IMG/VR virus record: IMGVR_UViG_2537561830_000002
Length of the DNA stretch: 52,488 bases
Direction: 5' to 3' (one strand)
Origin: a virus
Lineage: Duplodnaviria > Heunggongvirae > Uroviricota > Caudoviricetes
Both the position numbers and the translations under genes were made by a program. Of this stretch, positions 1,369-47,743 are shown in pieces; position 1 is the first letter of the stretch, and each line of letters begins with the position of its first letter. The notes below the pieces were generated by a model, which saw only the letters and a program-made list of their open reading frames with translations, was not told where the DNA came from and ran no database searches.

Positions 1369-1444
1369 GCCGATATAGCTCAGTTGGTAGAGCAGCGCAT
1401 TCGTAATGCGAAGGTCGTAGGTTCGACTCCTATTATCGGCACCA
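1369..1444 (+). tRNA. thrW: tRNA-Thr (intact, 76 nt, ends CCA)
   Basis: Sequence gccgatatagctcagttggtagagcagcgcattcgtaatgcgaaggtcgtaggttcgactcctattatcggcacca read directly; cloverleaf-compatible; classic P22/SfV-type attB. Confidence 0.9.
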
Positions 1445-1445
1445 T
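1399..1445. repeat. attL core: 47-bp direct repeat (3' part of thrW)
   Basis: attcgtaatgcgaaggtcgtaggttcgactcctattatcggcaccat is repeated exactly at 40857-40903. Confidence 0.85.
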
Positions 1446-12679: not shown

Positions 12680-12697
12680 TTTTTTCGGAGAAAGTTG

Positions 12698-13084
12698 ATG
12701 CGTAATATACAGATGATCCTTGAACGTTGGGGGGCATGGGCAGCGAGTGATAGCTCAGGAGTTGACTATTCGTCTATAGCTGCTGGGTTTAAGGGGCTTC
12801 TTCCATATACCAGAAAGACACGTCTAGCTTGTTCAGATAGTGATGCATTAATTATTGAAGGTAGCCTTGCTCTTCTTAAGAAGAGAAAACCGTACGAACA
12901 TTCTTTGATTGTGGCTCATTACCTGTATGGCATCTCGAAAAGAAAGATCGCAAAGGCACGTAATAAAGACGAAAAATTGATACGTATCGAGATACAGGTT
13001 GCTGAAGGTTTTATCGATGGCTGCCTAAGTATGCTGGATGTGAAACTTGAAATGGATGACTACTCTGAGTCTCCTGTAGCATGA
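12698..13084 (+). CDS. late-gene antiterminator Q (P22 gene 23 type)
   Basis: MRNIQMILERWGAWAA...SIAAGFKGLL matches the P22 gp23 family from memory; GGAGAAAG RBS. Confidence 0.8.
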   Translation: MRNIQMILERWGAWAASDSSGVDYSSIAAGFKGLLPYTRKTRLACSDSDALIIEGSLALLKKRKPYEHSLIVAHYLYGISKRKIAKARNKDEKLIRIEIQVAEGFIDGCLSMLDVKLEMDDYSESPVA

Positions 13085-13695
13085 AATAATGAAACGACCA
13101 TATGTCTTACATAATATGGTTGATTTGTAGCTGGATGCAATGTTGTACTCATGAATCGCAAGGGATTATCCTCGTCGGTTGTAATTTTTGCATCAGCTAC
13201 TTCCTGCTGAAGATGCTTTCGCCAGTCATCAAGTCTCTCGCCAGATTTCTTAATTTTACAGTAAATGATAATGCCACCATGGTTGTCACGCGCAGTGCCT
13301 GTGCCATATCGCTCGTTGAGCTGGTTCCATCCACCTAAGATGTACGCAGGACCTTTCCATAATTTAGCTTCGCCAATCCATGCAAATCGGCCGAGCTGAT
13401 GTTTAACTAATATATCTATATGCCCTCCATGCTGAGTGTCATGTTCAGCGTCATAATTACGGCCTTTCAAAAAAGCAATAATAACTGATGTGAGCTCATC
13501 TTCACCCCACTGCTGTGTTTGATACATATGTTTTTGGGTTTCCAAAACATACATCGCGTCATCAAGGTCAACGTAAAGTTGCTTCACGAAATCGTCGTGA
13601 CTTGCTGCAAATTTTCGCTTAAGAAAACCAGACAATTCAGGGTCAAATTGACTTAAGGTGTCTAATTGGGCAAGGTTGAAATTACATTCACTCAT
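13060..13695 (-). CDS. cassette gene C: hypothetical protein with PD-(D/E)xK-like nuclease motif (211 aa)
   Basis: Motif E84..D94 (GGHIDILV)..E109-A-K111 (WIGEAKLW); strong GGAGG RBS; AT-rich; 3' end overlaps the Q 3' end convergently by 25 nt. Confidence 0.7.
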   Translation of the reverse strand: MSECNFNLAQLDTLSQFDPELSGFLKRKFAASHDDFVKQLYVDLDDAMYVLETQKHMYQTQQWGEDELTSVIIAFLKGRNYDAEHDTQHGGHIDILVKHQLGRFAWIGEAKLWKGPAYILGGWNQLNERYGTGTARDNHGGIIIYCKIKKSGERLDDWRKHLQQEVADAKITTDEDNPLRFMSTTLHPATNQPYYVRHMVVSLFHATGDSE

Positions 13696-14110
13696 GTAAT
13701 TCCTCCAAAGCCTCAGTAGGAGTGAAGTATGGGAACAAATAATGATTATAATTATCGACTAATTGACCACTGTAAGGATGATAAAACTTACCTGTATGAA
13801 GCGCATGAGACACGTCATCATCATCGACGGGAATAGGATCACTATCGTCAGACTCGATATACTGGAAATGCATATCTAGCAAGTGCATTCTGTTGCTCGA
13901 AAGATAGTCAGTTACTTTGATCAGTAAAACTTTGGCATCGTTATTTTGCACATCAAGCTTAGTACCATTAACCAAACTTACATATGTTATGTGTTTCAGT
14001 GACTTAGCTTCTTTGCTGGTTAAAAAATCAACCACAACACGACATAAATCTCCAACCGGCCCATGTAGGTCGTGGTTGATTTTCGAGTATATGTCGTGTT
14101 TAGTTAACAT
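13688..14110 (-). CDS. cassette gene B: hypothetical protein (140 aa)
   Basis: ATG at 14108-14110 (the track ORF starts on TTG at 14116); stop overlaps gene C start by 8 nt; acidic stretch DSDPIPVDDDD; no motif recognised. Confidence 0.65.
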   Translation of the reverse strand: MLTKHDIYSKINHDLHGPVGDLCRVVVDFLTSKEAKSLKHITYVSLVNGTKLDVQNNDAKVLLIKVTDYLSSNRMHLLDMHFQYIESDDSDPIPVDDDDVSHALHTGKFYHPYSGQLVDNYNHYLFPYFTPTEALEELHE

Positions 14111-14120
14111 AATCAACTCT

Positions 14121-15218
14121 TTATGCAGCCTCGTCAGTGGCTCGCTTTCTCTGTATGCTTGATAGTGACTCTAACATCTTGTTGATTACAAACAAAATAT
14201 GCTCAATTGAGGAGCAACGATCTATGATTGCATCATAAAGGTGACTGTTCGGTTTATCAATCATAGCCCGTTTACCTGGCAGTATTAATTCTACAGGGAA
14301 AACTTGAGAAGCTGAATCAGTCAGATCCCAAATTTTACCGAGTTTGTATTTCGTTAGTATGGGACTTGCCTCTTCGCCCCCATGATGGTAGCTGTCTGAG
14401 CGCAAGCAGCTTTCACCCGGACGGAGTTTTAATGAGCTGGTGTTTCCATCTGATGTAAGAAATGACATCTGCGAGATTCTACCATCTGTTTGCTCGTACA
14501 TTTCTTGTACTAATCCAAAGAGGTCAATGGGCGCAGGTAAAGTCAAACCAGTAGTAGTTCTAATAAACTGATCAAGCAAAAATTGCTGTCGTTCCGACTC
14601 TGAACGAGGCATCACAGATAAATCAACAGTGAGCGCAAGTAAATGCAACTCGGGTAGAATCATTATTGTATTAAAGCACTGTGTAACTTCACGTGTTTTA
14701 CATTTGATTTCACCACCATTGGAGCGAAGAGCTAGCCCAGCATCGCTTAAATGGGTCGCGTCGAGTTCAATAGTTTCTGTGTAGTATGCTTTCGACGTAA
14801 GAATCGTTGTTTCTAAAGAAACTTTGTTTACGACAGAAAATGTAGTTTCTAAAAAATGAAGATCTGTATCAGCTGCAAGCAACACATCTTTAGGCAAAGG
14901 ATATGGATAGCTTTCGCAAAAAACGGATTCGTCTCTTTCTAGGGCATTTATATTCTCCCGTAGAGTTTGCACTTCTTCCGGTTCTAACTTATACAGCTTA
15001 ACTAAACGGGTCCCACTCAATAGTAAATTTTGCCATACTTCACCTATATGAGTACTTACAGCTTCCTGATCTACATCTTCTGTTGCTTGGAGCCTCGCGA
15101 TAAATGGGTCAAGGCCAACTGATGTGACACCAAGTGGTTCCCCCACAATTTTTTTTGTGAGCTTCCATCCAACACGTTCGGTGATATCTCTTAAAAGGTT
15201 GATCGTTTGCTCATTCAT
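14121..15218 (-). CDS. cassette gene A: hypothetical protein (365 aa)
   Basis: ATG at 15216-15218 (the track ORF starts on TTG at 15260); 10-nt gap to gene B; no Walker or other motif recognised; AT-rich. Confidence 0.7.
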   Translation of the reverse strand: MNEQTINLLRDITERVGWKLTKKIVGEPLGVTSVGLDPFIARLQATEDVDQEAVSTHIGEVWQNLLLSGTRLVKLYKLEPEEVQTLRENINALERDESVFCESYPYPLPKDVLLAADTDLHFLETTFSVVNKVSLETTILTSKAYYTETIELDATHLSDAGLALRSNGGEIKCKTREVTQCFNTIMILPELHLLALTVDLSVMPRSESERQQFLLDQFIRTTTGLTLPAPIDLFGLVQEMYEQTDGRISQMSFLTSDGNTSSLKLRPGESCLRSDSYHHGGEEASPILTKYKLGKIWDLTDSASQVFPVELILPGKRAMIDKPNSHLYDAIIDRCSSIEHILFVINKMLESLSSIQRKRATDEAA

Positions 15219-15299
15219 AAGAAACCCTTTTTTGTATTTTTTTGTACTTTTTGAAGGCAATTTAGATAGTCCTTAACATACTAAATTAACGAACATATT

Positions 15300-15536: not shown

Positions 15537-15863
15537 ATGCCTCATAACCCAAATACCTGGCTGGACTTGGTCCAGAGCTGGTGGCGTGGAGACACACCGC
15601 TGGGTGCAGTGATTATGTCGATCGTTATGGCTGGTTTGCGCATCGCCTATTTTGGCGGTGGTGGTGGCTGGAAGCGAAAAACGCTCGAGATTTTGCTATG
15701 TGGCGCTCTGACGCTGACCTTTGCATCCGCTCTTGAGTATGTCGGATGGCCTAAATCGCTTTCTGTTGCCATTGGTGGTGGCGTGGGGCTGATCGGTGTC
15801 GATGCTATTCGTGGGGCTGCAATGCGAGTAATCGGTAACAAATTTGGTAGCTCGAAGGAGTAA
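15537..15863 (+). CDS. holin (108 aa)
   Basis: Three hydrophobic segments with Gly-rich turns; directly upstream of the endolysin gene. Confidence 0.8.
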   Translation: MPHNPNTWLDLVQSWWRGDTPLGAVIMSIVMAGLRIAYFGGGGGWKRKTLEILLCGALTLTFASALEYVGWPKSLSVAIGGGVGLIGVDAIRGAAMRVIGNKFGSSKE

Positions 15864-27940: not shown

Positions 27941-28089
27941 CGGCTGAATACCTCACTGATCGCTTCTTTGACTGCGCCAGCTACTGGCGCATTAATCCCT
28001 TCGAATTGCTGAATATGCCGATCAGTGAAATTCCCTTGCTGGTCAGTCAGGCAAACAGGATAGAGCAGGAGAAACGCACACATGGCTGA
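27907..28089 (+). CDS. -1 frame extension of the tail chaperone (frameshift product tail)
   Basis: Slippery heptamer T_TTT_TTC at 27922-27928 in the zero frame; -1 frame open to 28089. Confidence 0.55.
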   Translation: MACGWFFPPGLTAEYLTDRFFDCASYWRINPFELLNMPISEIPLLVSQANRIEQEKRTHG

Positions 28090-29914
28090 ATTTGAGCTTA
28101 AGGCGTTGATCACCGGTGTCGACAGGCTTTCTCCCGCGCTGTCGAAAATGCAAAAGAAAATCCGGGGATTTAAACGCCAGGCGGAAGAGGCGTCACAGGG
28201 TGGGCTGGCGCTTGGTGGCGGACTGGCAGCGGGTCTGACGCTTTCCCTGAAATCTTATGCCGATCAGGAAAACGCCGCCACCGGGCTGAAAGTCGCCATG
28301 ATGGATGCGAACGGCGAGGTCGGAAAGAGCTTTCAGGACATCAATAAACTGGCTATTGGCCTGGGTAACCAGCTACCCGGTACAACGGCTGATTTCCAGA
28401 ACATGATGCAGATGCTGGTGCGTCAGGGGATCCCGGCAGAAAATATTCTTGGCGGTGTGGGTAAAGCGACAGCTTATCTTGCGGTACAACTGAAAAAAAC
28501 ACCGGAAGCGGCTGCTGAGTTTGCTGCAAAGATGCAGGATGCTACCGGAACGGCGTCAGAAGACATGATGGGGCTGTTCGACACTATCCAGAAGGCGTTT
28601 TATCTGGGCGTTGACGATACCAACATGTTGTCCTTCTTCACTAAAACCAGTTCTGTTCTGAAGATGGTGAACAAGGACGGTCTTCAGGCTGCACAGAGCC
28701 TTGCCCCCATCAGCGTCATGATGGATCAGATGGGGATGAACGGGGAGTCGGCAGGTAATGCCCTGCGAAAAGTTATCCAGTCCGGATTAAGCGTTAAGAA
28801 AATCAGGGACGTCAATAAAGTTATGGCCCGTCAGAAACTCGGGGTACAGCTCGATTTTACTGACGGCAAAGGAAGTTTTGGCGGTCTTGATAACATGTTT
28901 AAGCAACTGGCAAAGCTGCGAAAACTTACCGACGTTAAGCGAACAGGTGTACTTAAGGCAATATTTGGTGATGATGCCGAAACCCTTCAGGTGGTCAATG
29001 CGCTGATCGATAAAGGAAAGGATGGTTACGATCAGATCCAGCAAAAGATGAATAAACAGGCCAGCCTGAATAAACGTGTTCAGGCACAGCTTGGTACGCT
29101 GTCCAACCTGTGGGAGGCAATGACGGGGACCGCAACTAACGGCCTTGCGGCTATTGGCGGCGCATTTTCTGGTGACGCCAAAAATATCACGCAATGGCTG
29201 GGGGAGTTGGGGGAAAAATTCACGAAGTTTGCGGATGAAAATCCCCGGGTTATTCGCGGCGTCGTCGGGCTTGCTGCCGGTCTTGCGATTCTGAAACTGG
29301 GATTGATGGGCGTGGGCAGTGCCATCAGCATTGTCAGCAGGATCATGTCGATGACGCCGATTGGCATGATTGCGACGGCGATAGCCCTGGCTGCGGGATT
29401 AATTATCACTAACTGGGATGTTGTCGGACCTTATTTCAAGAAGCTCTGGGAAACCATTGGTCCTTATTTTGAGGCTGGCTGGGAACTCCTTAAGAAAGTT
29501 TTTGCCTGGTCGCCGATGGGGATGGTGATCAATAACTGGGGGCCGGTTGTTAAGTGGTTTCAGGATATGTGGGACAAGCTGAAGCCAATTATTGAGTGGT
29601 TTACCGACAGTTCCGGTGACACGGTCGATGCCATTAACTCTGCGCAGTGGGGCGCGGGTGCTTATGATGCTTATGGGACGGGAATACCGGCACGGGGATA
29701 CACTCCTTATCCGGCGGTGGATCCGGCTCAGGCAAACAACGCCTCCGATGCCACAGGCTCGAATCCCTTCATGATTAATAAAGCTACCGCGCCAAAAGTT
29801 GATGGTGAGATCAAGGTATCATTTATAAATATGCCACCAGGTATGCGGGTTACGGAAACACGCTCCAGTGGCATTGATATAAATCACGATGTTGGCTATA
29901 CCCGATTTTGGTAG
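28082..29914 (+). CDS. tail tape measure protein
   Basis: 610 aa; helical with Gly/Ala-rich hydrophobic segment and Trp-rich C-terminus. Confidence 0.9.
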   Translation: MAEFELKALITGVDRLSPALSKMQKKIRGFKRQAEEASQGGLALGGGLAAGLTLSLKSYADQENAATGLKVAMMDANGEVGKSFQDINKLAIGLGNQLPGTTADFQNMMQMLVRQGIPAENILGGVGKATAYLAVQLKKTPEAAAEFAAKMQDATGTASEDMMGLFDTIQKAFYLGVDDTNMLSFFTKTSSVLKMVNKDGLQAAQSLAPISVMMDQMGMNGESAGNALRKVIQSGLSVKKIRDVNKVMARQKLGVQLDFTDGKGSFGGLDNMFKQLAKLRKLTDVKRTGVLKAIFGDDAETLQVVNALIDKGKDGYDQIQQKMNKQASLNKRVQAQLGTLSNLWEAMTGTATNGLAAIGGAFSGDAKNITQWLGELGEKFTKFADENPRVIRGVVGLAAGLAILKLGLMGVGSAISIVSRIMSMTPIGMIATAIALAAGLIITNWDVVGPYFKKLWETIGPYFEAGWELLKKVFAWSPMGMVINNWGPVVKWFQDMWDKLKPIIEWFTDSSGDTVDAINSAQWGAGAYDAYGTGIPARGYTPYPAVDPAQANNASDATGSNPFMINKATAPKVDGEIKVSFINMPPGMRVTETRSSGIDINHDVGYTRFW

Positions 29915-30005
29915 CCAGGATTCCCCTCACATGTATTGCTGGTTGTAAGTCATAAATAGAGTGATAGAATTAATGCACATTTAGAAAAATGTTAATAGGC
30001 GAAAA

Positions 30006-30536
30006 ATGAAAGGCTATATCACAGCAAGTGTAATTCTTGGAGCAGCGGCTATTTTTTCATCTCTCATAATCTCTGGCAACATCTCCTTTAAAGATGAACA
30101 TATTATTCAGTTATCTGGAGGAGCCATAAAACTTGGTGATGTTTATAAAGAAAATAAATTAATAAGTGCAAAGATTATTTTTCCAGATAATCAGGGTGAA
30201 CAGATTCTTGTTGTCGACGGCAATCCTGAAAACTTTAAGGAGGATTTTCAGGAGAAATTAAATAAAGTAATAAAAACTTTAAATGCGTCAAAGAAAAAAG
30301 ATGAAGAGAAAGTTAGCCTGGATAATTTAAGTGTTATTGAAGAGTCTAAACTAGAGCTCGTTTCTGCGGTGCGTTACTCTGCTCAGTATGTTCCTATGTT
30401 TACTCTGACGCTGGACAAAAAAGAAATTACCATGCCTAAAAATACGGTAATATTTCCATTTGCCAGCGATGAAACAGCTAAGTATTTAAATGAACAACAG
30501 CAAAAGTATAAAGATTCGTTGTTTCTGACTCGCTAA
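30006..30536 (+). CDS. AT-rich moron: signal-anchored/secreted hypothetical protein (176 aa)
   Basis: N-terminal hydrophobic helix ITASVILGAAAIFSSLIISG; Lys/Asn-rich; own terminator; marked AT shift versus flanking tail genes. Confidence 0.65.
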   Translation: MKGYITASVILGAAAIFSSLIISGNISFKDEHIIQLSGGAIKLGDVYKENKLISAKIIFPDNQGEQILVVDGNPENFKEDFQEKLNKVIKTLNASKKKDEEKVSLDNLSVIEESKLELVSAVRYSAQYVPMFTLTLDKKEITMPKNTVIFPFASDETAKYLNEQQQKYKDSLFLTR

Positions 30537-30553
30537 TTAATAAAATTCATTAC

Positions 30554-30582
30554 AAGGCCACCTTCTAATAGGTGGCTTTTTA
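30554..30582 (+). terminator. rho-independent terminator after the moron
   Basis: aaggccacc-ttctaata-ggtggcttttt. Confidence 0.6.
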
Positions 30583-30597
30583 ATTTTCGGAGTATAT

Positions 30598-31926
30598 ATG
30601 ACGTGGAAAGACAGACTTCAGGACGCGTCATTTCGCGGTGTGCCGTTTAAGGTTGAAGAAGAAAGTGCGGGAACCGGTCGTCGTGTGGAAACGCACGAAT
30701 ACCCAAACCGCGACAAACCCTATACCGAAGACCTGGGGAAAATCACTTTCCGCCCGTCCATCACGGCTTATGTGGTGGGAGATGACTGCTTTGACCAGCG
30801 CGATCGCCTGATTGACGCGCTGAATAAACCCGGTCCCGGCACGCTTGTCCATCCGACTTACGGTGAGCTGAAAGTCTGTGTTGACGGAGAGGTTCGGGTC
30901 AGCACATCGAAGAGTGAAGGGCGTATTGTCCGCTTTGACCTGAAGTTTGTCGAAGCGGGAGAACTCTCTTACCCCACATCAGGTGCGGCGACGGCGCAGA
31001 CGCTGATGTCATCCTGTTCTGCACTGGATGACTGCATCAGTGACAGCTTCAGCGGTTTCAGTATCGATGGCGTGGCGGATTTTGTGCAGAACGACGTCGT
31101 CGGTAATGCCAGCACAATGCTTGGGTATGTTTCTGATGCGATGAAAGTGGTGGATTCTGCCGTATCGGATGCTGCCAAGCTGTTGCAGGGGGATATCTCG
31201 GTACTTCTGCCGCCACCATCGTCAGGCAAAAATTTCGTTGAGCAGGTGCAGAAAATGTGGCGTACCGGGAAACGCCTTTATGGTAACGCCAGCGACCTGG
31301 TCACCATGATCAAAACGCTTTCCGGTGTCAGCCTCGGCAGCGATCTGCAACCGCGCGGCGTCTGGAAAACGGACAGTAAAACCACCGCCACGGCGACGCA
31401 GCAGCGTAATGTGGTTGCCAGCACCCTTCGTACGACCGCAATCAGTGAAGCGGCGTATGCCGTCACCCGATTGCCTGCGCCAACAACTTCCGCGGTGATG
31501 CAGAATTCCGCAGTGGGGCAGGCAACAACACCTGCGCAGAGCACTGGCTGGCCTTCCGTCACGCATCCGGCACTGAACAATGCACCGGCGGTGAAAAACA
31601 CGGTTGATCTGCCGACGTGGGAAGAACTGACTGACATTCGCGACACACTGAATACGGCAATTGATAAGGAGTTGTCCCGTACAACCAGTGATGCGCTGTT
31701 TCTGGCGCTGCGCCGGGTGAAAGCAGATCTGAATGCGGATATCAACACGCGCCTTGAACAGTCTGCACGGATCATTCAGCGCACACCGGATGAGGTTTTA
31801 CCCGCGCTGGTGCTGGCGGCGACCTGGTTTGATAACGCGGCGCGTGACGCGGACATTATCCGGCGTAATGCCATTACGCATCCCGGCTTTGTGCCGGTGA
31901 TCCCTCTGAAGGTGCCAGTGCAATGA
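30598..31926 (+). CDS. DNA circulation protein (Mu gpN-like)
   Basis: N-terminus WKDRLQDASFRGVPFKVEEE...THEYPNRDKPYTEDLG typical of the family. Confidence 0.85.
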   Translation: MTWKDRLQDASFRGVPFKVEEESAGTGRRVETHEYPNRDKPYTEDLGKITFRPSITAYVVGDDCFDQRDRLIDALNKPGPGTLVHPTYGELKVCVDGEVRVSTSKSEGRIVRFDLKFVEAGELSYPTSGAATAQTLMSSCSALDDCISDSFSGFSIDGVADFVQNDVVGNASTMLGYVSDAMKVVDSAVSDAAKLLQGDISVLLPPPSSGKNFVEQVQKMWRTGKRLYGNASDLVTMIKTLSGVSLGSDLQPRGVWKTDSKTTATATQQRNVVASTLRTTAISEAAYAVTRLPAPTTSAVMQNSAVGQATTPAQSTGWPSVTHPALNNAPAVKNTVDLPTWEELTDIRDTLNTAIDKELSRTTSDALFLALRRVKADLNADINTRLEQSARIIQRTPDEVLPALVLAATWFDNAARDADIIRRNAITHPGFVPVIPLKVPVQ

Positions 31927-38025: not shown

Positions 38026-38895
<870 letters not shown>

Positions 38896-40856: not shown

Positions 40857-40903
40857 ATTCGTAATGCGAAGGTCGTAGGTTCGACTCCTATTATCGGCAC
40901 CAT
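40857..40903. repeat. attR core: 47-bp direct repeat of the thrW 3' end
   Basis: Exact copy of 1399-1445. Confidence 0.85.
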
Positions 40904-41543
40904 CAACAGAAAACCCCGTAAAAGCTGCATTGTTTAGCATGTTTATCTAACGGTTTGTAACTTCTGTTCTAACGTCCGCTATCACTTACAAACGCCTATA
41001 CGTTGTTATGGGCTTTGGTAGTGTAACACGTATGGGCGAGTAGTTCCCAGGCTCAACCTCGTAACAAGTTCCTTTGAAGCTGGAAGACGTGCCACCGTCT
41101 CTAAACCTTCTACCAAAACTCTTAGCAAGATGTTCCACACCTGGCGCGGTGTCCAATGATGCTACACGTCGTGAGACGTTGCAGAGGATAAACAGGCTAA
41201 ATGATGGGAAGAGTTTTAAGTGCAATAGTGGATCAAAGCCCACCTCTTCAAAACCTAACTTGATCGGGAAAGAATCAAGCTCTAGCACGGTTTCGTCCAC
41301 CGGAGTACAACGGGTGCCTGATAAGAGAAGAACTGCTAAGACTTCATAGCTTTTGTGAAAAAGCCCTTTTTAGTGGATACGCCTACGGCGCTTATTTTTT
41401 GGTATAACCATCAAAGGCGCTTTATGGCTCCTATTGTCTTGAAAATGTATCTTTACTTGTATTGTGTTTTATGCGTAGTCTCCCTGTGTAGTATGTAACT
41501 TGTTAATTTTCATATGAATACAGAGGCAACACGATGAAAAACA

Positions 41544-41696
41544 TTGCAGCTATAAAACGTAATAACCGCAAGATTCACGCTCGTAAGTTCCTGTCTACGC
41601 CAGAGGGAAAAGCCTGGCTAGAGCGTAAACAGCGAGAGAACGAAGAAAGAAAACTCCTTAGTGAGTTGAAATGGCTTAAGGATTGAATCACCAGTA
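41544..41696 (+). CDS. small basic ORF (50 aa), hypothetical
   Basis: AGAGG RBS; Lys/Arg-rich; below the ORF-track cutoff. Confidence 0.35.
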
Positions 41697-42236
41697 GGCG
41701 CATAACACATCCAGCGATCAAAGATGTGTTTATGCGCCTGATAGTGAAATTATTAAAGTTTTTTAGTTAATGTAGCCATTGCATGAACGATGATCGCTAG
41801 TGAATCGATTTTATCTCGAGGGGTAAAATAGATGAGGTATATGATGGTAACAATTACAGCTAAAGTAATTGTGGTTCTGCAGGTTTTTAAAATGGATGAG
41901 ATAAAGCGCATAGATACCCCCTATTGATTTAACAATAGCAAAGTATCATTTATTTTTTATTGCACGCAACATGCAAATTTTCACATATAATAGTTTACTA
42001 TTCACTTTGTATGGTGTCAACAAGATGATGTGTTGTTTTGTTTGATTTGTTCAAGATAATGTTTCATTTTCTCATCTATATAACTTGTGTTTTAGATAAT
42101 TTCACTAATTGTAAAAGTTACGTATTGCTTAATAGCTACCTTTTTATCTGAAATCGGCGCAGACGTGATCAATGTTTAACGCGAAGATCAGCGGCGTCAG
42201 GTCCACGCAGCGACAATTCTCAAATATCAGGAGGCA

Positions 42237-42788
42237 TTACGCTTCCTGCTCTTTCTTAATACGTTGCACTGTCTGTGTGCTGACACTGAAATCTTTTGCT
42301 ACGCTCCGAATTGATCCACCATTCGCGAGAGCGGCAACAATTCCCGCTCGATCAATTGCTTTTCCATTACCACGTTTTGCTATACGCCCAGCTGCCTTAG
42401 CTGCGGCGATCCCTTCACGTTGACGCTCAAGCATCATTTCACGTTCCATTTGTGCCACTGCTGCAAGCACTGTGAGCATCATATTCCCTGCGGGAGAGTT
42501 CTTCCCTGTCTTAAAGTCTTCTTTATGGAAATGCACAGACACGCCGCGCTCTGTTAATTGCTCAACCGTTGCCAGTAGGTCGGCTGTATTACGGCAAAGT
42601 CGATCAATGCTGTGAACATGCAAAACATCACCTTCACGCACATAGTTCATCATTGCCTCAAACTGTGGGCGCTGGGTATTCTTGCCTGACGCTTTATCTT
42701 CAAAGACTTTATCAAGAGTTACTCCAGCTAATTGACGGTCTGTGTTTTGTTGGACAGTCGATACCCTAATGTATCCAATATTAGCCAT
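42237..42788 (-). CDS. small serine recombinase (resolvase/invertase family, 183 aa)
   Basis: MANIGYIRVSTVQQNTDRQ... catalytic Ser motif; C-terminal HTH; GAAGGAAA RBS. Confidence 0.85.
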   Translation of the reverse strand: MANIGYIRVSTVQQNTDRQLAGVTLDKVFEDKASGKNTQRPQFEAMMNYVREGDVLHVHSIDRLCRNTADLLATVEQLTERGVSVHFHKEDFKTGKNSPAGNMMLTVLAAVAQMEREMMLERQREGIAAAKAAGRIAKRGNGKAIDRAGIVAALANGGSIRSVAKDFSVSTQTVQRIKKEQEA

Positions 42789-43296
42789 TTTCATTTTCCT
42801 TCTGTGTTGATTTGTGTGTAGTGATTATTGATCGTGTTGATTAGGTGTGTAAAGGACTTTTTTCACTACGAAATTCGAAGGTTTTTAGTGTGGTGATTTA
42901 GCCTGCTTTATCACTACACGTCTTGCATGAGAATCATGTGGTTACGTTTTGGTAAAATTAGCAAGCTATTAAATAGTGTGTTTATTTTGAAAAAATAATT
43001 TTTTGTTGCATTAAAGAAAACTTGTTCGACAGATAATAGATTGATTTTTAATCAATAATTTCTGATAGTGCTCTGTAAGCCGCATTACACAAGGATTTGC
43101 GAAAGTGATGTAAAAGTGAAGAAAGCTAACATTGCACTTTTTAAGCTACTTTTCATTGAATTTTTAGTATGGAATTACATAAGGATTAATCATCAATTAA
43201 TCTTGAATTTAAGCCTGTTTTAGATGTTTAATTTTGGTAGCAAGAAACACTTTTAGAAGATCATTGCACAGATGTTATGTGATAAATGGATGTAAC

Positions 43297-43349
43297 GGTA
43301 GGTCACTGTGAGCTAGGGGGTAGGTCACTGTGAGCTAGGGGGTAGGTCA
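43297..43349. repeat. 2.4 tandem copies of a 22-bp unit (iteron-like)
   Basis: ggtaggtcactgtgagctaggg repeated head to tail. Confidence 0.7.
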
Positions 43350-43486
43350 ATTTGAACCACAATAAGACTAACGATAATACTAATAATAAAACTAACTATT
43401 AAACTATATAATATAATTCTTTTTTATCTTTATAAGAATAATTATAGGGATACCCGTTAGGGAGTCTAACGACTATCCCTTAATCT

Positions 43487-43514
43487 ATTGGCATTCGCCA
43501 GAACCTTGCACAAG
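43487..43514. repeat. left arm of an imperfect 28-bp inverted repeat
   Basis: attggcattcgccagaaccttgcacaag matches the reverse complement of 43830-43857 at 25 of 28 positions. Confidence 0.5.
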
Positions 43515-43829
43515 TTAGACTGATACTTCTCATAACACATAGTTTTTTGTTTGTTGATGTTAGTTAGTAGATCTATGTTCGCTAATGCCGCTCACAACGA
43601 ATATGTAATCTACTATGTGCAAATAGCCTACGGCTTGCGTAAGGCTAAATAGTCTTGCGCTGTGCGCAGAACGATAATTAACTAACTACCATCTAACGAT
43701 TGAAATTTACTTGTGCAATAACCTGAGCGTAAGCGAATGGTTGTTAGTGTCTATGCGCTGTGCGCTTCAATAGTTCCATTGATGAGGCTTACGCCAATCT
43801 AACGATCATCAATCATCTAAAATAAATTT

Positions 43830-43857
43830 CTTGTGCAATGTTCTGGCGAATGCAATT
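43830..43857. repeat. right arm of the imperfect 28-bp inverted repeat
   Basis: cttgtgcaatgttctggcgaatgcaatt. Confidence 0.5.
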
Positions 43858-44147
43858 AGAGTAGCGTTACCCCTTTGGGGATGCTAACGCATAACTATAG
43901 ATCAACCATCAAACAGACAAAAAAGAAAAATATGGTTTAAAGATGTTAGGTAGTAGATGAGATTCTACCCCTTAAATAAGCCTCTGGCGAGCTAAACAGC
44001 CTCTACATAAGGGAATGTATTGTTTTTATCAAAACCTCGTTAGAACGCATTTTAGAGCGTTTTAGAGAATAAGGAAGAATAGGAGTACTCGTAAGAGCAC
44101 GAATTGCTCGTAAGTGCATGAAAAAGATCGATTTTTTTCGGAAATGG

Positions 44148-44182
44148 TATTGACAAACGTCTCTTTCTGTGCAATAATAGGT
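44148..44182 (+). promoter_or_regulatory. candidate sigma-70 promoter for the small-gene operon
   Basis: TTGACA, 17-nt spacer, AATAAT; about 120 nt upstream of the first ORF. Confidence 0.4.
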
Positions 44183-44302
44183 ATTAGAGGGACAGGAATA
44201 GATTCTTATCCTCTAAATAATTAAACCAATGCACCGCACTTTGAAGCCCAAGGCTTGCAAGGTGTCTTTTTCTTTTAACCAAATAGAATAGGAGGTTAAT
44301 TA

Positions 44303-44485
44303 ATGAAATATTTCACTCCACAGGATGTAGTAGAAGCCTGGAAACGTGGTGAGATCAACCGCTTTAAAGTAAGGATGTATAGAAACACCGCTCGCCGTTG
44401 TGGTTATCCAGAGCGTGAAAAATGCTTTGACGATGCACTAAAAATTATTGATGAACTGCGTAAGGCAGAAGCAGAGAAAGAATAA
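44303..44485 (+). CDS. hypothetical small protein (60 aa)
   Basis: Strong RBS TAGGAGG; AT-rich. Confidence 0.5.
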   Translation: MKYFTPQDVVEAWKRGEINRFKVRMYRNTARRCGYPEREKCFDDALKIIDELRKAEAEKE

Positions 44486-44506
44486 TAACAGGAGAAGGAG
44501 AAAACT

Positions 44507-44674
44507 ATGAGCGAAACCAAGAAACCAATTCCACGCACTTACCTACACGTTGACCCTGAAATTTTCAAGATTTTATTTGCTGAAGCCAAGAAAAGGCAAA
44601 TTATGGTCAGTGATTTGATGTTAGAAATCATTACTGAAGCAGCAGAGAACATCAAACAAAAAAAGGGTAAGTGA
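44507..44674 (+). CDS. small ribbon-helix-helix-like DNA-binding protein (55 aa)
   Basis: Beta-strand-like PRTYLHVD followed by two amphipathic helices; RBS GGAGAAGGAG; assignment by pattern only. Confidence 0.45.
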   Translation: MSETKKPIPRTYLHVDPEIFKILFAEAKKRQIMVSDLMLEIITEAAENIKQKKGK

Positions 44675-44725
44675 TCCTCATTCACTTTAGTAGCGCATTA
44701 AGCGTGATTTATAAGGAGATTTTTA

Positions 44726-45352
44726 ATGATAAACCAGCCAACTTTTACAAAACACTATAACACGTTTGATAATATATCAAAGATTTACTCTAATGAATTT
44801 CCAGAAGGTAAGGTTTTAGATTTATTGCACATTGTTCTTTATTATAGATTTCTTAGTTATCAGGAAAATGGTCTTAATTGTTATGAAAGTCACGAAACAT
44901 TAGCTAAGATTTTTAAGTCTTCACCATCAACAATTAAACGTAAGATAAACGATCTTAAAGAGATGGGATTATTAGAAACATCCCCACATCCTGATCCGTA
45001 TATTTCATCTTTGATTTACAATGCTCTCCCTCTCACAGATGCACATATTACTCCCCCAGGAGAGTCATCACTACCTGATCCTTCTGAGAAAGAAAACGAA
45101 TCTAATGAAATATTGAATGTTTCAGAAATCATCGTTGAAGAAGAAAAACAGGAATCAGAGTTCCCTGAGCGGCCCGAAATTTTTACTTGGCTTCTTTCCC
45201 TTGATAAGAAGAAACCACCGCACGAAGAAACAGAAGATTTTGTAAAACGAGCATTAGATTCAAAGAATATCTATCTTTGTGAAAATGATTTTGACTCTTT
45301 GATAATTGATCTCAAAAGTGAGAGCACAATATATGATTCACTACCCTTTTAA
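44726..45352 (+). CDS. hypothetical protein with winged-helix-like N-terminus and acidic C-terminus (208 aa)
   Basis: AAGGAG RBS; LAKIFKSSPSTIKRKINDLKEMGLLE HTH-like segment. Confidence 0.5.
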   Translation: MINQPTFTKHYNTFDNISKIYSNEFPEGKVLDLLHIVLYYRFLSYQENGLNCYESHETLAKIFKSSPSTIKRKINDLKEMGLLETSPHPDPYISSLIYNALPLTDAHITPPGESSLPDPSEKENESNEILNVSEIIVEEEKQESEFPERPEIFTWLLSLDKKKPPHEETEDFVKRALDSKNIYLCENDFDSLIIDLKSESTIYDSLPF

Positions 45353-45661
45353 GGAGAATAAATGGCTTATAACATCACTATAGGAAACAAAACTATTGAA
45401 ATAACTGAGAGCGGATACCACATTTTAAAAGCTATTTTGGAAATAGAGTTCTCACCGCCGACAGTGGTTAGCTTTTAGGGTTTAGCTCCTATCATCATTT
45501 TTTGGGATTTAACGCTTTCAATAATTGTGTAGGTGGTGCATCGGAAGTCGATCTGATGGCTCATTTAGAATGATACATTAGCTTCTAACAAACGTTCTAA
45601 CTAATAAAATGATGGGCGTATGTATAAGCGCCCAATGAAAATATTCAAAAAAGGAAAAATA

Positions 45662-45865
45662 ATGATTGGCTATATTCAAGAAACACAATTATTTCAGATG
45701 ATCCTGTCTGATGCAAAAAACTATGCTGAGTTAATCCGACTGGCAAAAGAAACAGAAGACTACGAAGCATTAGAGCGTTATCGTGATGAAGTGCTGACGC
45801 TCAAGACACCTTTTAACATCGTATTGAATATGATTAATGATGCATTACAAGGAGAAGCCGCATAA
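45662..45865 (+). CDS. hypothetical small protein (67 aa)
   Basis: AAGGA RBS; helical. Confidence 0.45.
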   Translation: MIGYIQETQLFQMILSDAKNYAELIRLAKETEDYEALERYRDEVLTLKTPFNIVLNMINDALQGEAA

Positions 45866-46173
45866 TGGAAGAAGATATTAGCAATGCAATGGAACAACTT
45901 TTAGATCTGACTATCTCACTACAAACAAGAATAAATCAAGCCTATTCAGATTTATGCGATTACACGCTCTCTCAATGCGTTATTAGCTTAATGAAGGTGA
46001 ATGTAAGCCTTGACGATTTTATCTCTCTGGTGAGCGATTTAGAGCTAATTGAGGACGATGCCAAGATGTGCACTCAAATCATCACAGACACCGCCAGCAC
46101 GTTAAAGGCTGCAAGTGAAGAGATTCAGCAATTAGTAGATGATTTAGCAAAAAGTGCTATTTCTTCTAAGTGA
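45865..46173 (+). CDS. hypothetical acidic protein (102 aa)
   Basis: TAATG coupling to the previous ORF. Confidence 0.5.
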   Translation: MEEDISNAMEQLLDLTISLQTRINQAYSDLCDYTLSQCVISLMKVNVSLDDFISLVSDLELIEDDAKMCTQIITDTASTLKAASEEIQQLVDDLAKSAISSK

Positions 46174-47077
46174 TAATGAAAATCATTTGCATTTATAACG
46201 ATTTCATTATATAATGATATTAGGGGTAGATAAAAAGGTTTTGACTGGTGTTAATCCTTCTACTGTCATAAATCCCTGCATATGGAAGGTGATAGCCTCA
46301 AAGGTTGAGTGGCATTAACCTCTAACAAATATTACCTTCCATCTCTCAAGAAGTTTTAGAATAATCATAACTCCCTCTTTGATTGTTGATTGTTTCTACG
46401 TTGTGTTGATGAATGTTGTTAGGCATTGTGCTTAATTTTGATAAAAGCGGGTAGGTGTTATCTCCTTGCCCTTCCCGCTCTTATTTTTCATCTATGCTTA
46501 TCCTAAAGCTCCTTATTTTGTCAGAAAACATTAAAGAGCCTTACACTGATAGTTATATTTTATAACTATTTACTAACATCATTAAACTATTATTTAATGA
46601 CAGAAGTTAGTAACAGAATAATCTATTAAGTTGTTGTCAAAAACAATCATCTGCATAGCGTTAGCCGCAAGCAGAGAGAGTTTAGCTAAGAATGGTGCAA
46701 TAAACTTTGGAAATATTGATAGCAAAACGGGTTTTATAGAATGCGGATCTATAAGCTTTGGTTGTAAAAACGATTTTCTGAAACGGTAGATTACTGTTGG
46801 TGTAGTTAATCATTATTAAAAATTTAATCTGTGAGTAGATTGGAATAGTGATTCCTTAAAATCTGACTGGTGCATCCACACCATGAAAGATAGCGGTTGG
46901 CCACCGCGCCCCGAATAGATATTCCTGATTGATTCCGCATGTTTTCCTAAGAGCATGTTTTCAGGAGTATCTATTCACCCTTTAAGCATATCATCAAGTA
47001 TATTTAAAAAGTGTATTTGCTGATATGTTTAATCCTCTTATAGTTTAACTTATCAATTATGTAATTGCCCGCACGTT

Positions 47078-47127
47078 AAAGCCCCTTTGCTGGTCAGAAT
47101 TAACCTCTTACGGCATTGGGGCTTTTT
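47078..47127 (+). terminator. candidate terminator (GC stem plus T-run, long loop)
   Basis: aaagcccc...ggggcttttt. Confidence 0.35.
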
Positions 47128-47157
47128 ATTTGTCTGGCACTAACAGGAACGTTATTT

Positions 47158-47355
47158 ATGAAACAAGAAATGATTATCAGCAAAGACGGGGAAACGATGA
47201 TTGTTAGTGATGAAAACCTCATTAAGGTTGCCGCACTGTTGGGAATTACTCCCGAAAGTCTTCGTTCTACCACTGCTCAATTATTTAAATCGGCTGATGC
47301 GGTTAGTCTTGCTGATGCCCTTAAATCTAAAATTAAACAACTGAAAGGAAAATAA
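47158..47355 (+). CDS. hypothetical small protein (65 aa)
   Basis: AGGA RBS; first gene of a compact plus-strand cluster. Confidence 0.45.
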   Translation: MKQEMIISKDGETMIVSDENLIKVAALLGITPESLRSTTAQLFKSADAVSLADALKSKIKQLKGK

Positions 47356-47359
47356 TCTT

Positions 47360-47743
47360 ATGGCTAACCCATATGGAAAATTAAAAGCAGTGAATGCGGA
47401 TAACTCCCGTTCACGCTGTAAGGTAGTAGCTTACGCTGCTGATCCAGTGCTGCAAGATCGCCTCGTCAAACTGGCTTCACCTCTCACTGACGATCTTATT
47501 GTCGGGGCTTTGCTGAAAGCCGATGGCACCAAAGCAACAACCGCATCTGATATTGCTCACATAGTAGTTGAACCGGCTTATGAAGGACAGGAAAGCGTAG
47601 TGGTTGCACATCCTACTTTCGTTATTCTGGCTGAAGATGGGATTGAATTTAACAGCATGGAAAAGGCAAGTGTTATTGCAAAACTGCAATCTCTCGGCTT
47701 TGTAATTGCTAGTTATGAAGAACTTGCGATCCCTACGACTTAA
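47360..47743 (+). CDS. hypothetical phage-like protein (127 aa)
   Basis: Tight spacing with neighbours; AAAGGAAA RBS. Confidence 0.5.
   Translation: MANPYGKLKAVNADNSRSRCKVVAYAADPVLQDRLVKLASPLTDDLIVGALLKADGTKATTASDIAHIVVEPAYEGQESVVVAHPTFVILAEDGIEFNSMEKASVIAKLQSLGFVIASYEELAIPTT

Follow-up and report, generated by a model that had tools for sequence, protein, structure and literature searches.

P1 Sim, T4 Sp and lactococcal Sie2009 block DNA entry after adsorption; each combines an N-terminal signal or anchor with an extracytoplasmic domain of about 100-170 aa, and their genes lie outside tail operons. To our knowledge, little has been described of the way in which temperate coliphages with contractile tails pass the inner membrane, or of how prophages block that step. 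The HK97 gp15 moron encodes an inner-membrane protein, expressed from the prophage, that blocks genome injection in a tail-dependent manner (Cumby et al. 2012, as summarized in PMC3594210), and the definition of a moron given by Juhala and Hendrix, in the form restated in the same article, includes an own promoter, an own terminator and expression from the prophage. Known accessory sites include the defence hotspots of P2/P4 phages and satellites and the Q-lysis moron site of lambdoid phages, both as cited in PMC11364771 and PMC3851460. Here we analyze the IMG/VR virus record IMGVR_UViG_2537561830_000002 (Caudoviricetes), a stretch of 52,488 nucleotides referred to below as the window, which contains an SfV-family prophage. 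Our subject is the segment 29915-30587, located between the genes for the tail tape measure and for a Mu gpN-like DNA-circulation protein, which we regard with high confidence as a moron-type accessory cassette in a recombinational cargo slot of this prophage. Its gene is optional, horizontally acquired and selected, and encodes a transmembrane (TM)-anchored protein of 176 aa. That this protein acts in envelope-level superinfection exclusion, in a manner analogous but not homologous to that of HK97 gp15, is our tentative reading, with a probability of about 0.45.

A cargo slot between the tape measure and gpN-like genes

The cassette and its borders are organized as follows.

28082-29914, plus strand: tail tape measure gene, left border of the slot (PF10145 PhageMin_Tail, E=1e-26; PHROG tape measure families)
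29915-30005, plus strand: AT-rich 91-nt leader of the insert, with a promoter-like element and a weak ribosome-binding site (AGG about 7-9 nt ahead of the ATG), as read from the sequence
29943-29970, plus strand: sigma-70 promoter-like site, TTGTAA, 16-nt spacer, TAGAAT, with a TG extended -10 (9/12 matches plus TG)
30006-30536, plus strand: cargo gene for the 176-aa predicted bitopic membrane protein (PHROG 5485; 77-cluster family; AF2 model)
30554-30587, plus strand: intrinsic-terminator-like hairpin (stem-loop 30554-30579; 10 pairs, 5 of them G-C, and a 6-nt loop) with a T-rich tail
30588-31926, plus strand: right border of the slot, made up of the ribosome-binding region with its conserved CGGAGTnTAT and the baseplate gene for DNA circulation, Mu gpN-like (right junction conserved in all variants)
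30598-31926, plus strand: the DNA-circulation gene (gpN-like) proper, from its ATG at 30598 (PF07157 DNA_circ_N, E=6e-34)

The cargo open reading frame (ORF) starts 91 nt past the tape measure stop (29914) and ends 61 nt ahead of the gpN-like ATG (30598). A first-pass annotation, made by a model from the letters alone, had described at this place a 176-aa ORF with an N-terminal TM-length helix, inserted between the tape measure and DNA-circulation genes and differing strongly in base composition from its neighbors; the coordinates, the PF10145 and PF07157 domains of the flanking products and the hydropathy of the protein bear this out, and so does the deviating composition expected of a moron, with a GC content of 0.341 (0.295 at third codon positions, GC3) for the ORF compared to 0.555 for the tail module and a GC3 of 0.562 for the tape measure gene. 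The body of the protein, which had been called Lys/Asn/Glu-rich, is fairly described so for lysine (11.9%) and glutamate (8.0%), whereas its asparagine content (5.7%) is not unusual.

To define the occurrence of the gene, a set of 5426 complete E. coli genomes was used as census. The cargo gene was found in 179 of them, mostly at 99% identity or above, with the exact slot context kept in 171 of the 179 carriers, whereas the flanking tail genes were present in about 1096 genomes. Junction states were typed in an evenly spaced sample of 40 matching records, with the following outcome.

Empty junction (60-nt spacer): 18 of 40 records
176-aa cargo ORF at the junction: 7 of 40 records
Other cargo at the junction: 8 of 40 records
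Only the gpN side matching: 7 of 40 records

In SfIV, this last pattern goes with another tape measure allele, and the junction is empty. The junction is likewise empty in the viable phages SfI, SfII, SfV and vB_EcoM-689R6, so that the gene is absent at the same position in close relatives (empty span of 1181 nt vs 1801 nt), and together with the excess of genomes that carry only the flanks this sustains the proposal of an accessory moron. Its position inside the tail operon could also suit a structural or assembly component of the Mu-type tail, and an AT-rich spacer could hold a spurious ORF, but both explanations are extremely improbable. The gene shows no homology to a conserved Mu-type tail component, is missing from SfI, SfII, SfV, SfIV and 689R6 as well as from roughly every second related prophage, and has homologs outside tail modules; because viable relatives do without it and distant homologs lie outside tail operons, we rejected the tail-component explanation. 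The ORF is not spurious, as its family comprises 77 clusters that keep the full length, its fold is predicted with confidence and its nonsynonymous divergence (pN) is much below its synonymous divergence (pS).

The tape measure-gpN junction is a cargo hotspot, in which at least four other unrelated AT-rich genes alternate with the 176-aa gene. The cargos found, with the number of genomes for each, were the following.

176-aa protein, N-terminal TM anchor: 179 genomes
164-aa protein, signal peptide: 85 genomes
148-aa protein, TM anchor plus tRNA_anti-like oligonucleotide-binding (OB) fold, minus strand: 72 genomes
225-aa protein, lipoprotein with an LLLGGC lipobox: 55 genomes
125-aa protein, bPH_1 domain, no export signal: 28 genomes

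All of these cargos are AT-rich (GC 0.31-0.42 vs 0.50-0.55), and four of the five carry export or anchor signals. The possibility that they are distant homologs of one another was rejected by profile comparison. The variants lose their homology to one another inside the final 3-4 tape measure codons and regain it at the T-run and the gpN CGGAGTnTAT-ATG. No repeats or transposase were seen at the slot, and cargo exchange has probably taken place by homologous recombination in the flanking genes.

Like the P2/P4 hotspots and the lambdoid Q-lysis moron site, this is a fixed slot in which unrelated genes of foreign composition alternate between near-identical elements. Unlike at those sites, its cargos are single small proteins, mostly targeted to the envelope, instead of multi-gene cytoplasmic defence systems, and neither the 176-aa protein nor any of the four alternative cargos gave a match in PADLOC-DB 2.0 at E<=1. 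A moron in the tail operon within a prophage hotspot is a well-known kind of element; the protein itself is new and uncharacterized, and no description of the slot in SfV-family prophages or of the 176-aa family was found in the literature searched.

Outside E. coli, the same slot holds the gene in Leclercia (53% identity) and in Edwardsiella (41% identity). In the latter the flanks are more conserved, with 68% identity for gpN and 82% for gpP, so the cargo diverges faster than its structural neighbors. A related-locus search with a shallow family alignment returned a single locus. In Lelliottia amnigena (GCA_053585915.1, locus L013, 5806-6568), a 763-nt relic directly downstream of icd consists of the last ~40 tape measure codons, an intact 174-aa homolog and the hairpin, with no other phage genes within 6 kb. 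Comparison of this copy with that of the Leclercia prophage yielded pN=0.12 and pS=0.74, implying purifying selection and a function independent of the phage, and the relic looks like a moron that has outlived its prophage. A further case in which the cargo is intact while the tail module decays was observed in E. coli O166:H15 JNE21-003 (locus L008, 1-802), where the cargo gene carries two amino-acid changes and the adjoining tape measure gene is a truncated pseudogene.

More distant homologs, of about 23% identity, are located in Pseudomonas-type genomes within small integrative islands that have no tail genes. In two of these islands (L015, 5634-7534; L019, 5935-7531) the homolog adjoins a divergent 189-aa gene of the resolvase/invertase type; their recombination genes are of the large serine recombinase or the tyrosine integrase type, and DUF5906 is present in one of them. 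The gene that precedes the homolog encodes a 180-aa signal-peptide protein in one island and a 66-aa membrane protein in the other. The 180-aa neighbor was considered as a paralog or conserved partner and rejected, as the partner differs between islands.

Transcription signals of the cassette and of the junction

The first-pass annotation had credited the cassette with its own terminator and set it among morons that have a promoter and a terminator of their own. Single-sequence scans of the region detected promoter-like sites at the level of shuffled sequences (3 seen vs 2.9 expected), and the same was true of terminator-like sites (1 seen vs 1.4 expected). As these scans are no better than shuffles, the credibility of both elements rests on conservation. 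Non-coding blocks of the leader are conserved among the E. coli, Leclercia and Lelliottia copies, and the promoter elements stay in register in Leclercia and Lelliottia (TTGCAA/TTGTCA, TGA, ..AAT), although the proteins are only about 53% identical. A promoter of the cassette's own at 29943-29970 is therefore plausible in view of its consensus match and its cross-genus conservation, even with a site count that equals the shuffle expectation.

The second element, the hairpin at 30554-30579 with its T-run, is present (minimum free energy of about -17 kcal/mol) and is located directly upstream of the gpN ribosome-binding site. However, a GC-rich hairpin followed by a T-run stands just ahead of that site in every plus-strand variant examined, and was seen in the empty, PH, lipoprotein, 164-aa, Leclercia, Edwardsiella and SfII junctions. 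The stems differ from variant to variant (CCCAC/GTGGG, CCCGC/GCGGG, CCACC/GGTGG and others), always perfectly paired, and the SfII record itself annotates a putative rho-independent terminator at its empty junction. Where the minus-strand OB-fold cargo occupies the slot, the hairpin is found instead directly after the tape measure stop codon. The hairpin terminator is a constant element of the locus, belonging to it as much as to the cassette, and since the empty junction has one too, it is not strictly the moron's own. The empty SfV-family junction (L002, 1019-1078; SfII, L014, 831-869) shows a strong hairpin and T-run in the middle of an operon, of about -18.7 kcal/mol.

In the lambda paradigm, RNA polymerase modified by Q ignores terminators. 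Because the prophage encodes a Q antiterminator, an internal terminator with a cargo upstream of it would be tolerated without polarizing the tail operon. Read-through of this kind would also give late expression to a gene that is co-oriented within a Q-dependent late operon, and the gene occupies the same slot beside the tape measure in three genera; both observations could be accommodated by a late-expressed accessory of the phage cycle, which would guard the infected cell or its debris from re-adsorption or injection by progeny, or modulate the passage of the phage through the envelope, to the benefit of the lytic phage and not of the lysogen. We consider such a role very unlikely, given that close viable phages lack the gene, that the distant homologs and the Lelliottia copy occur without phage morphogenesis genes, and that the cassette has a conserved promoter-like element of its own.

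The 176-aa protein and its possible role in superinfection exclusion

The protein matches PHROG 5485, a family of unknown function, over its full length (residues 1-176 vs profile 1-176, E=3.8e-108). An exhaustive profile search across 1.84 billion representative proteins retrieved only 77 clusters, nearly all of 170-180 aa and full-length, and the named members (Escherichia, Leclercia, Lelliottia, Edwardsiella, Pseudomonas sp. and Alkanindiges) define a small gammaproteobacterial family. In an alignment of 58 sequences the TM segment is conserved and is followed by a membrane-proximal motif, N-x-I...G-x-V-x-L-G-x-V-Y-x-E, and by a second block near Y124; G44 and Y124 are invariant. The N-terminus is hydrophobic (Kyte-Doolittle maximum of 2.11 for a 19-residue span, at residue 5) and free of charge between residues 3 and 28, and the uncharged hydrophobic stretch of the 58 members is 23 residues long in the median and 19 at the minimum. 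This length speaks more for a signal anchor than for a cleaved signal peptide, although the charge bias is weak and cleavage is possible.

AlphaFold2 (AF2), run on the 58-sequence alignment, produced a confident model (pLDDT 92.1, pTM 0.76) composed of a helix at 2-23, a linker, strands at 32-36, 39-44, 46-58, 65-72, 114-126 and 132-143, and long helices at 74-93 and 149-171. The protein is predicted to have a TM helix at about residues 3-25, a short linker and an alpha/beta domain of about 145 aa facing the periplasm. The only significant fold match was to the 'Lipoprotein' of Pseudomonas phage ventosus (BFVD A0A2H4P829; E=1e-6, TM-score 0.56/0.67), which superposes on the AF2 domain and is as uncharacterized as PHROG 5485; it differs from the cargo protein in its length of 144 aa, in being only 16% identical and in being lipid-anchored, by its name, instead of TM-anchored. 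A periplasmic or membrane location, as proposed in the first-pass annotation, is supported by this match and by the TM-length anchor across the 58 members, and remains a prediction. No match to the protein was found in Pfam or NCBIfam, a Pfam scan of all 58 members returned scattered single-member noise only, the PDB contained no fold match to the AF2 model, and a profile search of PDB sequences was also empty. The 176-aa protein and the distant member P0072 were also used as tblastn queries on 50,697 sequenced phages, with no match, and no function assignment for the family was found in the databases or literature searched, including by orthologue accession. The family is in this way one with a confidently predicted fold that has no solved relative.

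The anatomy of the cassette invites comparison with HK97 gp15, whose cassette likewise encodes a TM helix, ends in a terminator and is low in GC (0.37). In each case a single gene forms an AT-rich cassette of the tail operon, which abuts the tape measure gene, encodes an N-terminal TM helix, carries a hairpin terminator ahead of the next tail gene and is absent from close relatives, and in both an inner-membrane protein is encoded beside the tape measure, membrane insertion being predicted for the cargo protein. On the other hand, gp15 has 62 aa and essentially no extramembrane domain, whereas about 145 aa of the cargo protein form a folded domain; gp15 is encoded upstream of the tape measure of a siphovirus, and the cargo gene lies downstream of that of a contractile Mu-like tail. 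Sequence similarity between the two proteins is absent (blastp E=1.9; family HMM score 1.1). As P1 Sim, T4 Sp and Sie2009 are generally described, their anatomy is like that predicted for the cargo protein, which showed no homology to solved or profiled families. The Tab/Tai tail-assembly-interference morons were set aside as a model, as they are cytoplasmic and lie near the terminase genes.

In the exclusion reading, the protein would be inserted in the inner membrane with its N-terminus inside and its domain in the periplasm. In the lysogen, transcription would start at the cassette's own extended -10 promoter and stop at the junction terminator, and in lytic growth the Q-modified RNA polymerase would pass this terminator, so that the insert would not polarize the tail operon. 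The periplasmic domain would then hinder an envelope step of an incoming phage, most likely the penetration of the inner membrane or the delivery of DNA after adsorption. Such an action would resemble that of HK97 gp15, P1 Sim or T4 Sp/Imm, to none of which the cargo protein showed a sequence relation in the profile and structure-library searches. The circumstantial support for this reading comes from a hotspot in which most cargos are envelope-targeted and one is annotated as Sie-like: a full-length match (E=1.5e-49) links the OB-fold cargo to PHROG 8545, which bears the name 'superinfection exclusion Sie-like'. The 176-aa protein itself does not resemble that family, as its hhalign probability against PHROG 8545 was 1.7%, limited to the TM segment, and its AF2 fold is a sheet with two helices and no OB barrel. 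The prophage has at least one recognized and validated defence gene (PD-T4-3), which we count as context for exclusion.

Several observations weigh against this reading. The 'Sie-like' label of the OB-fold cargo is a database annotation only, and because the bPH_1 cargo has no export signal, the slot is not exclusive to envelope proteins. The 176-aa protein shows no homology to known exclusion or defence proteins in PADLOC, Pfam, NCBIfam or PDB, its candidate promoter stands among promoter-like sites no more frequent than in shuffles, and since DNA of 34% GC is typically silenced by H-NS in E. coli, expression of the gene in the lysogen may be low. The charge signal for the N-in/C-out orientation is weak, with 2.1 positives at the N-terminus compared to 1.8 K+R in the next 15 residues. 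In addition, the most conserved residues (G39, L43, G44, E49, Y124 and L134) are kept across distant hosts, which is as compatible with a conserved host target as with a fast-evolving phage target, if not more so.

The weak charge bias and the shared prophage accessory context could also be reconciled with a membrane-anchored defence acting after entry, as an abortive-infection protein or sensor with a cytoplasmic domain, in the way of lactococcal AbiP or staphylococcal PdpSau; TM-anchored prophage proteins can indeed abort infection while adsorption and genome delivery are unaffected (PMC10127798). This is quite unlikely for the cargo protein, as the lysine at position 2 and the net negative stretch after the helix favor the N-in/C-out orientation, the fold matches a phage 'Lipoprotein' that would be exported, the slightly acidic domain (21 K+R vs 23 D+E) resembles no nucleic-acid-binding or effector fold, and PADLOC gave no match.

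Lambda Bor and Lom are precedents of lysogenic conversion that improve host fitness. A conversion factor unrelated to phages, serving envelope stress tolerance, serum or bacteriocin resistance, adhesion or similar, would fit the anatomy and the envelope location of the 176-aa protein equally well, and the residues common to distant hosts suggest a conserved host partner. Retention of the gene alone, under purifying selection, after the decay of the Lelliottia prophage points in the same direction, and morons with such roles are documented (PMC3594210). Nevertheless, we hold this explanation as unlikely: the gene occurs in strains from human, chicken, cattle, giant panda, mouse and freshwater sources, among which no pathotype or niche link is visible, the family members in marine or environmental Pseudomonas-type and Alkanindiges genomes argue against a role specific to animal hosts, and a neighboring allele of the slot is annotated as Sie-like.

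A more ambitious version of the exclusion reading, which we consider possible but doubtful, is that the slot is a dedicated entry-exclusion locus and that the 176-aa protein founds a new family of periplasmic, inner-membrane-anchored exclusion proteins without a solved fold relative. Proteins of this family would jam the step at which contractile-tailed phages penetrate the membrane or deliver their DNA, perhaps through contact with the incoming tape measure or hub proteins, or with the conserved host inner-membrane component that these need. If exclusion is indeed the function, the slot offers a natural allelic series of five unrelated, mostly envelope-targeted small proteins and an empty allele, lying in near-identical prophages of about 20% of complete E. 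coli genomes, and with it a possible route to new entry-exclusion mechanisms and to their phage or host targets. If there is no phage phenotype, the cargo gene is one more uncharacterized moron. A specialist is unlikely to be surprised by the finding; the slot series and the confidently predicted fold with no solved relative make a good experimental entry point.

Prophage setting and other accessory loci

This E. coli prophage is 95-97% identical in nucleotide sequence to parts of SfII, SfIV, SfV and vB_EcoM-689R6 and has the layout of the SfV family: lambdoid, with an HK97-like head, a Mu-like contractile tail and integration at thrW. Its bounds and other relevant features of the window are the following.

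1-1254: ORF of an aldehyde-dehydrogenase-family (proA-like) gene adjoining thrW
About 1399-40903: SfV-family prophage, bounded by the 47-nt repeat of the tRNA-Thr(CGT) 3' end
1399-1445, plus strand: attL core, the 3' part of tRNA-Thr(CGT) (47-nt repeat)
12695-13084, plus strand: lambda-type late antiterminator Q (PF06530, E=3.9e-50)
40857-40903: attR, second copy of the 47-nt repeat

The PD-T4-3 anti-phage defence match corresponds to a 274-aa GIY-YIG (LEM-3-like) protein encoded at 38026-38850 on the minus strand (PADLOC E=2.7e-140). Its gene lies at the right end of the prophage, beyond the pin-type invertase region, and forms an accessory locus separate from the tape measure-gpN slot.

An AT-rich cluster (GC about 0.40-0.42) of three minus-strand genes, for proteins of 211, 142 and 379 aa, spans 13060-15260. 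With Q (12695-13084) on one side and the holin gene (15537-15863) on the other, it fills the classic Q-lysis moron site, where the related genome L001 has other gene content. All three products match PHROGs of unknown function, and the 211-aa protein gave a weak PADLOC match only (PDC-S54, E=7e-6).

Collinearity of the window with genome NZ_CP196312 ends after about 40.9 kb. Just beyond attR, a long and very AT-rich stretch (41400-47400, GC 0.33-0.37) contains few ORFs of at least 90 aa; a 208-aa ORF at 44726-45352, also outside attR, showed a weak CasR-like PADLOC match only (E=4e-5).

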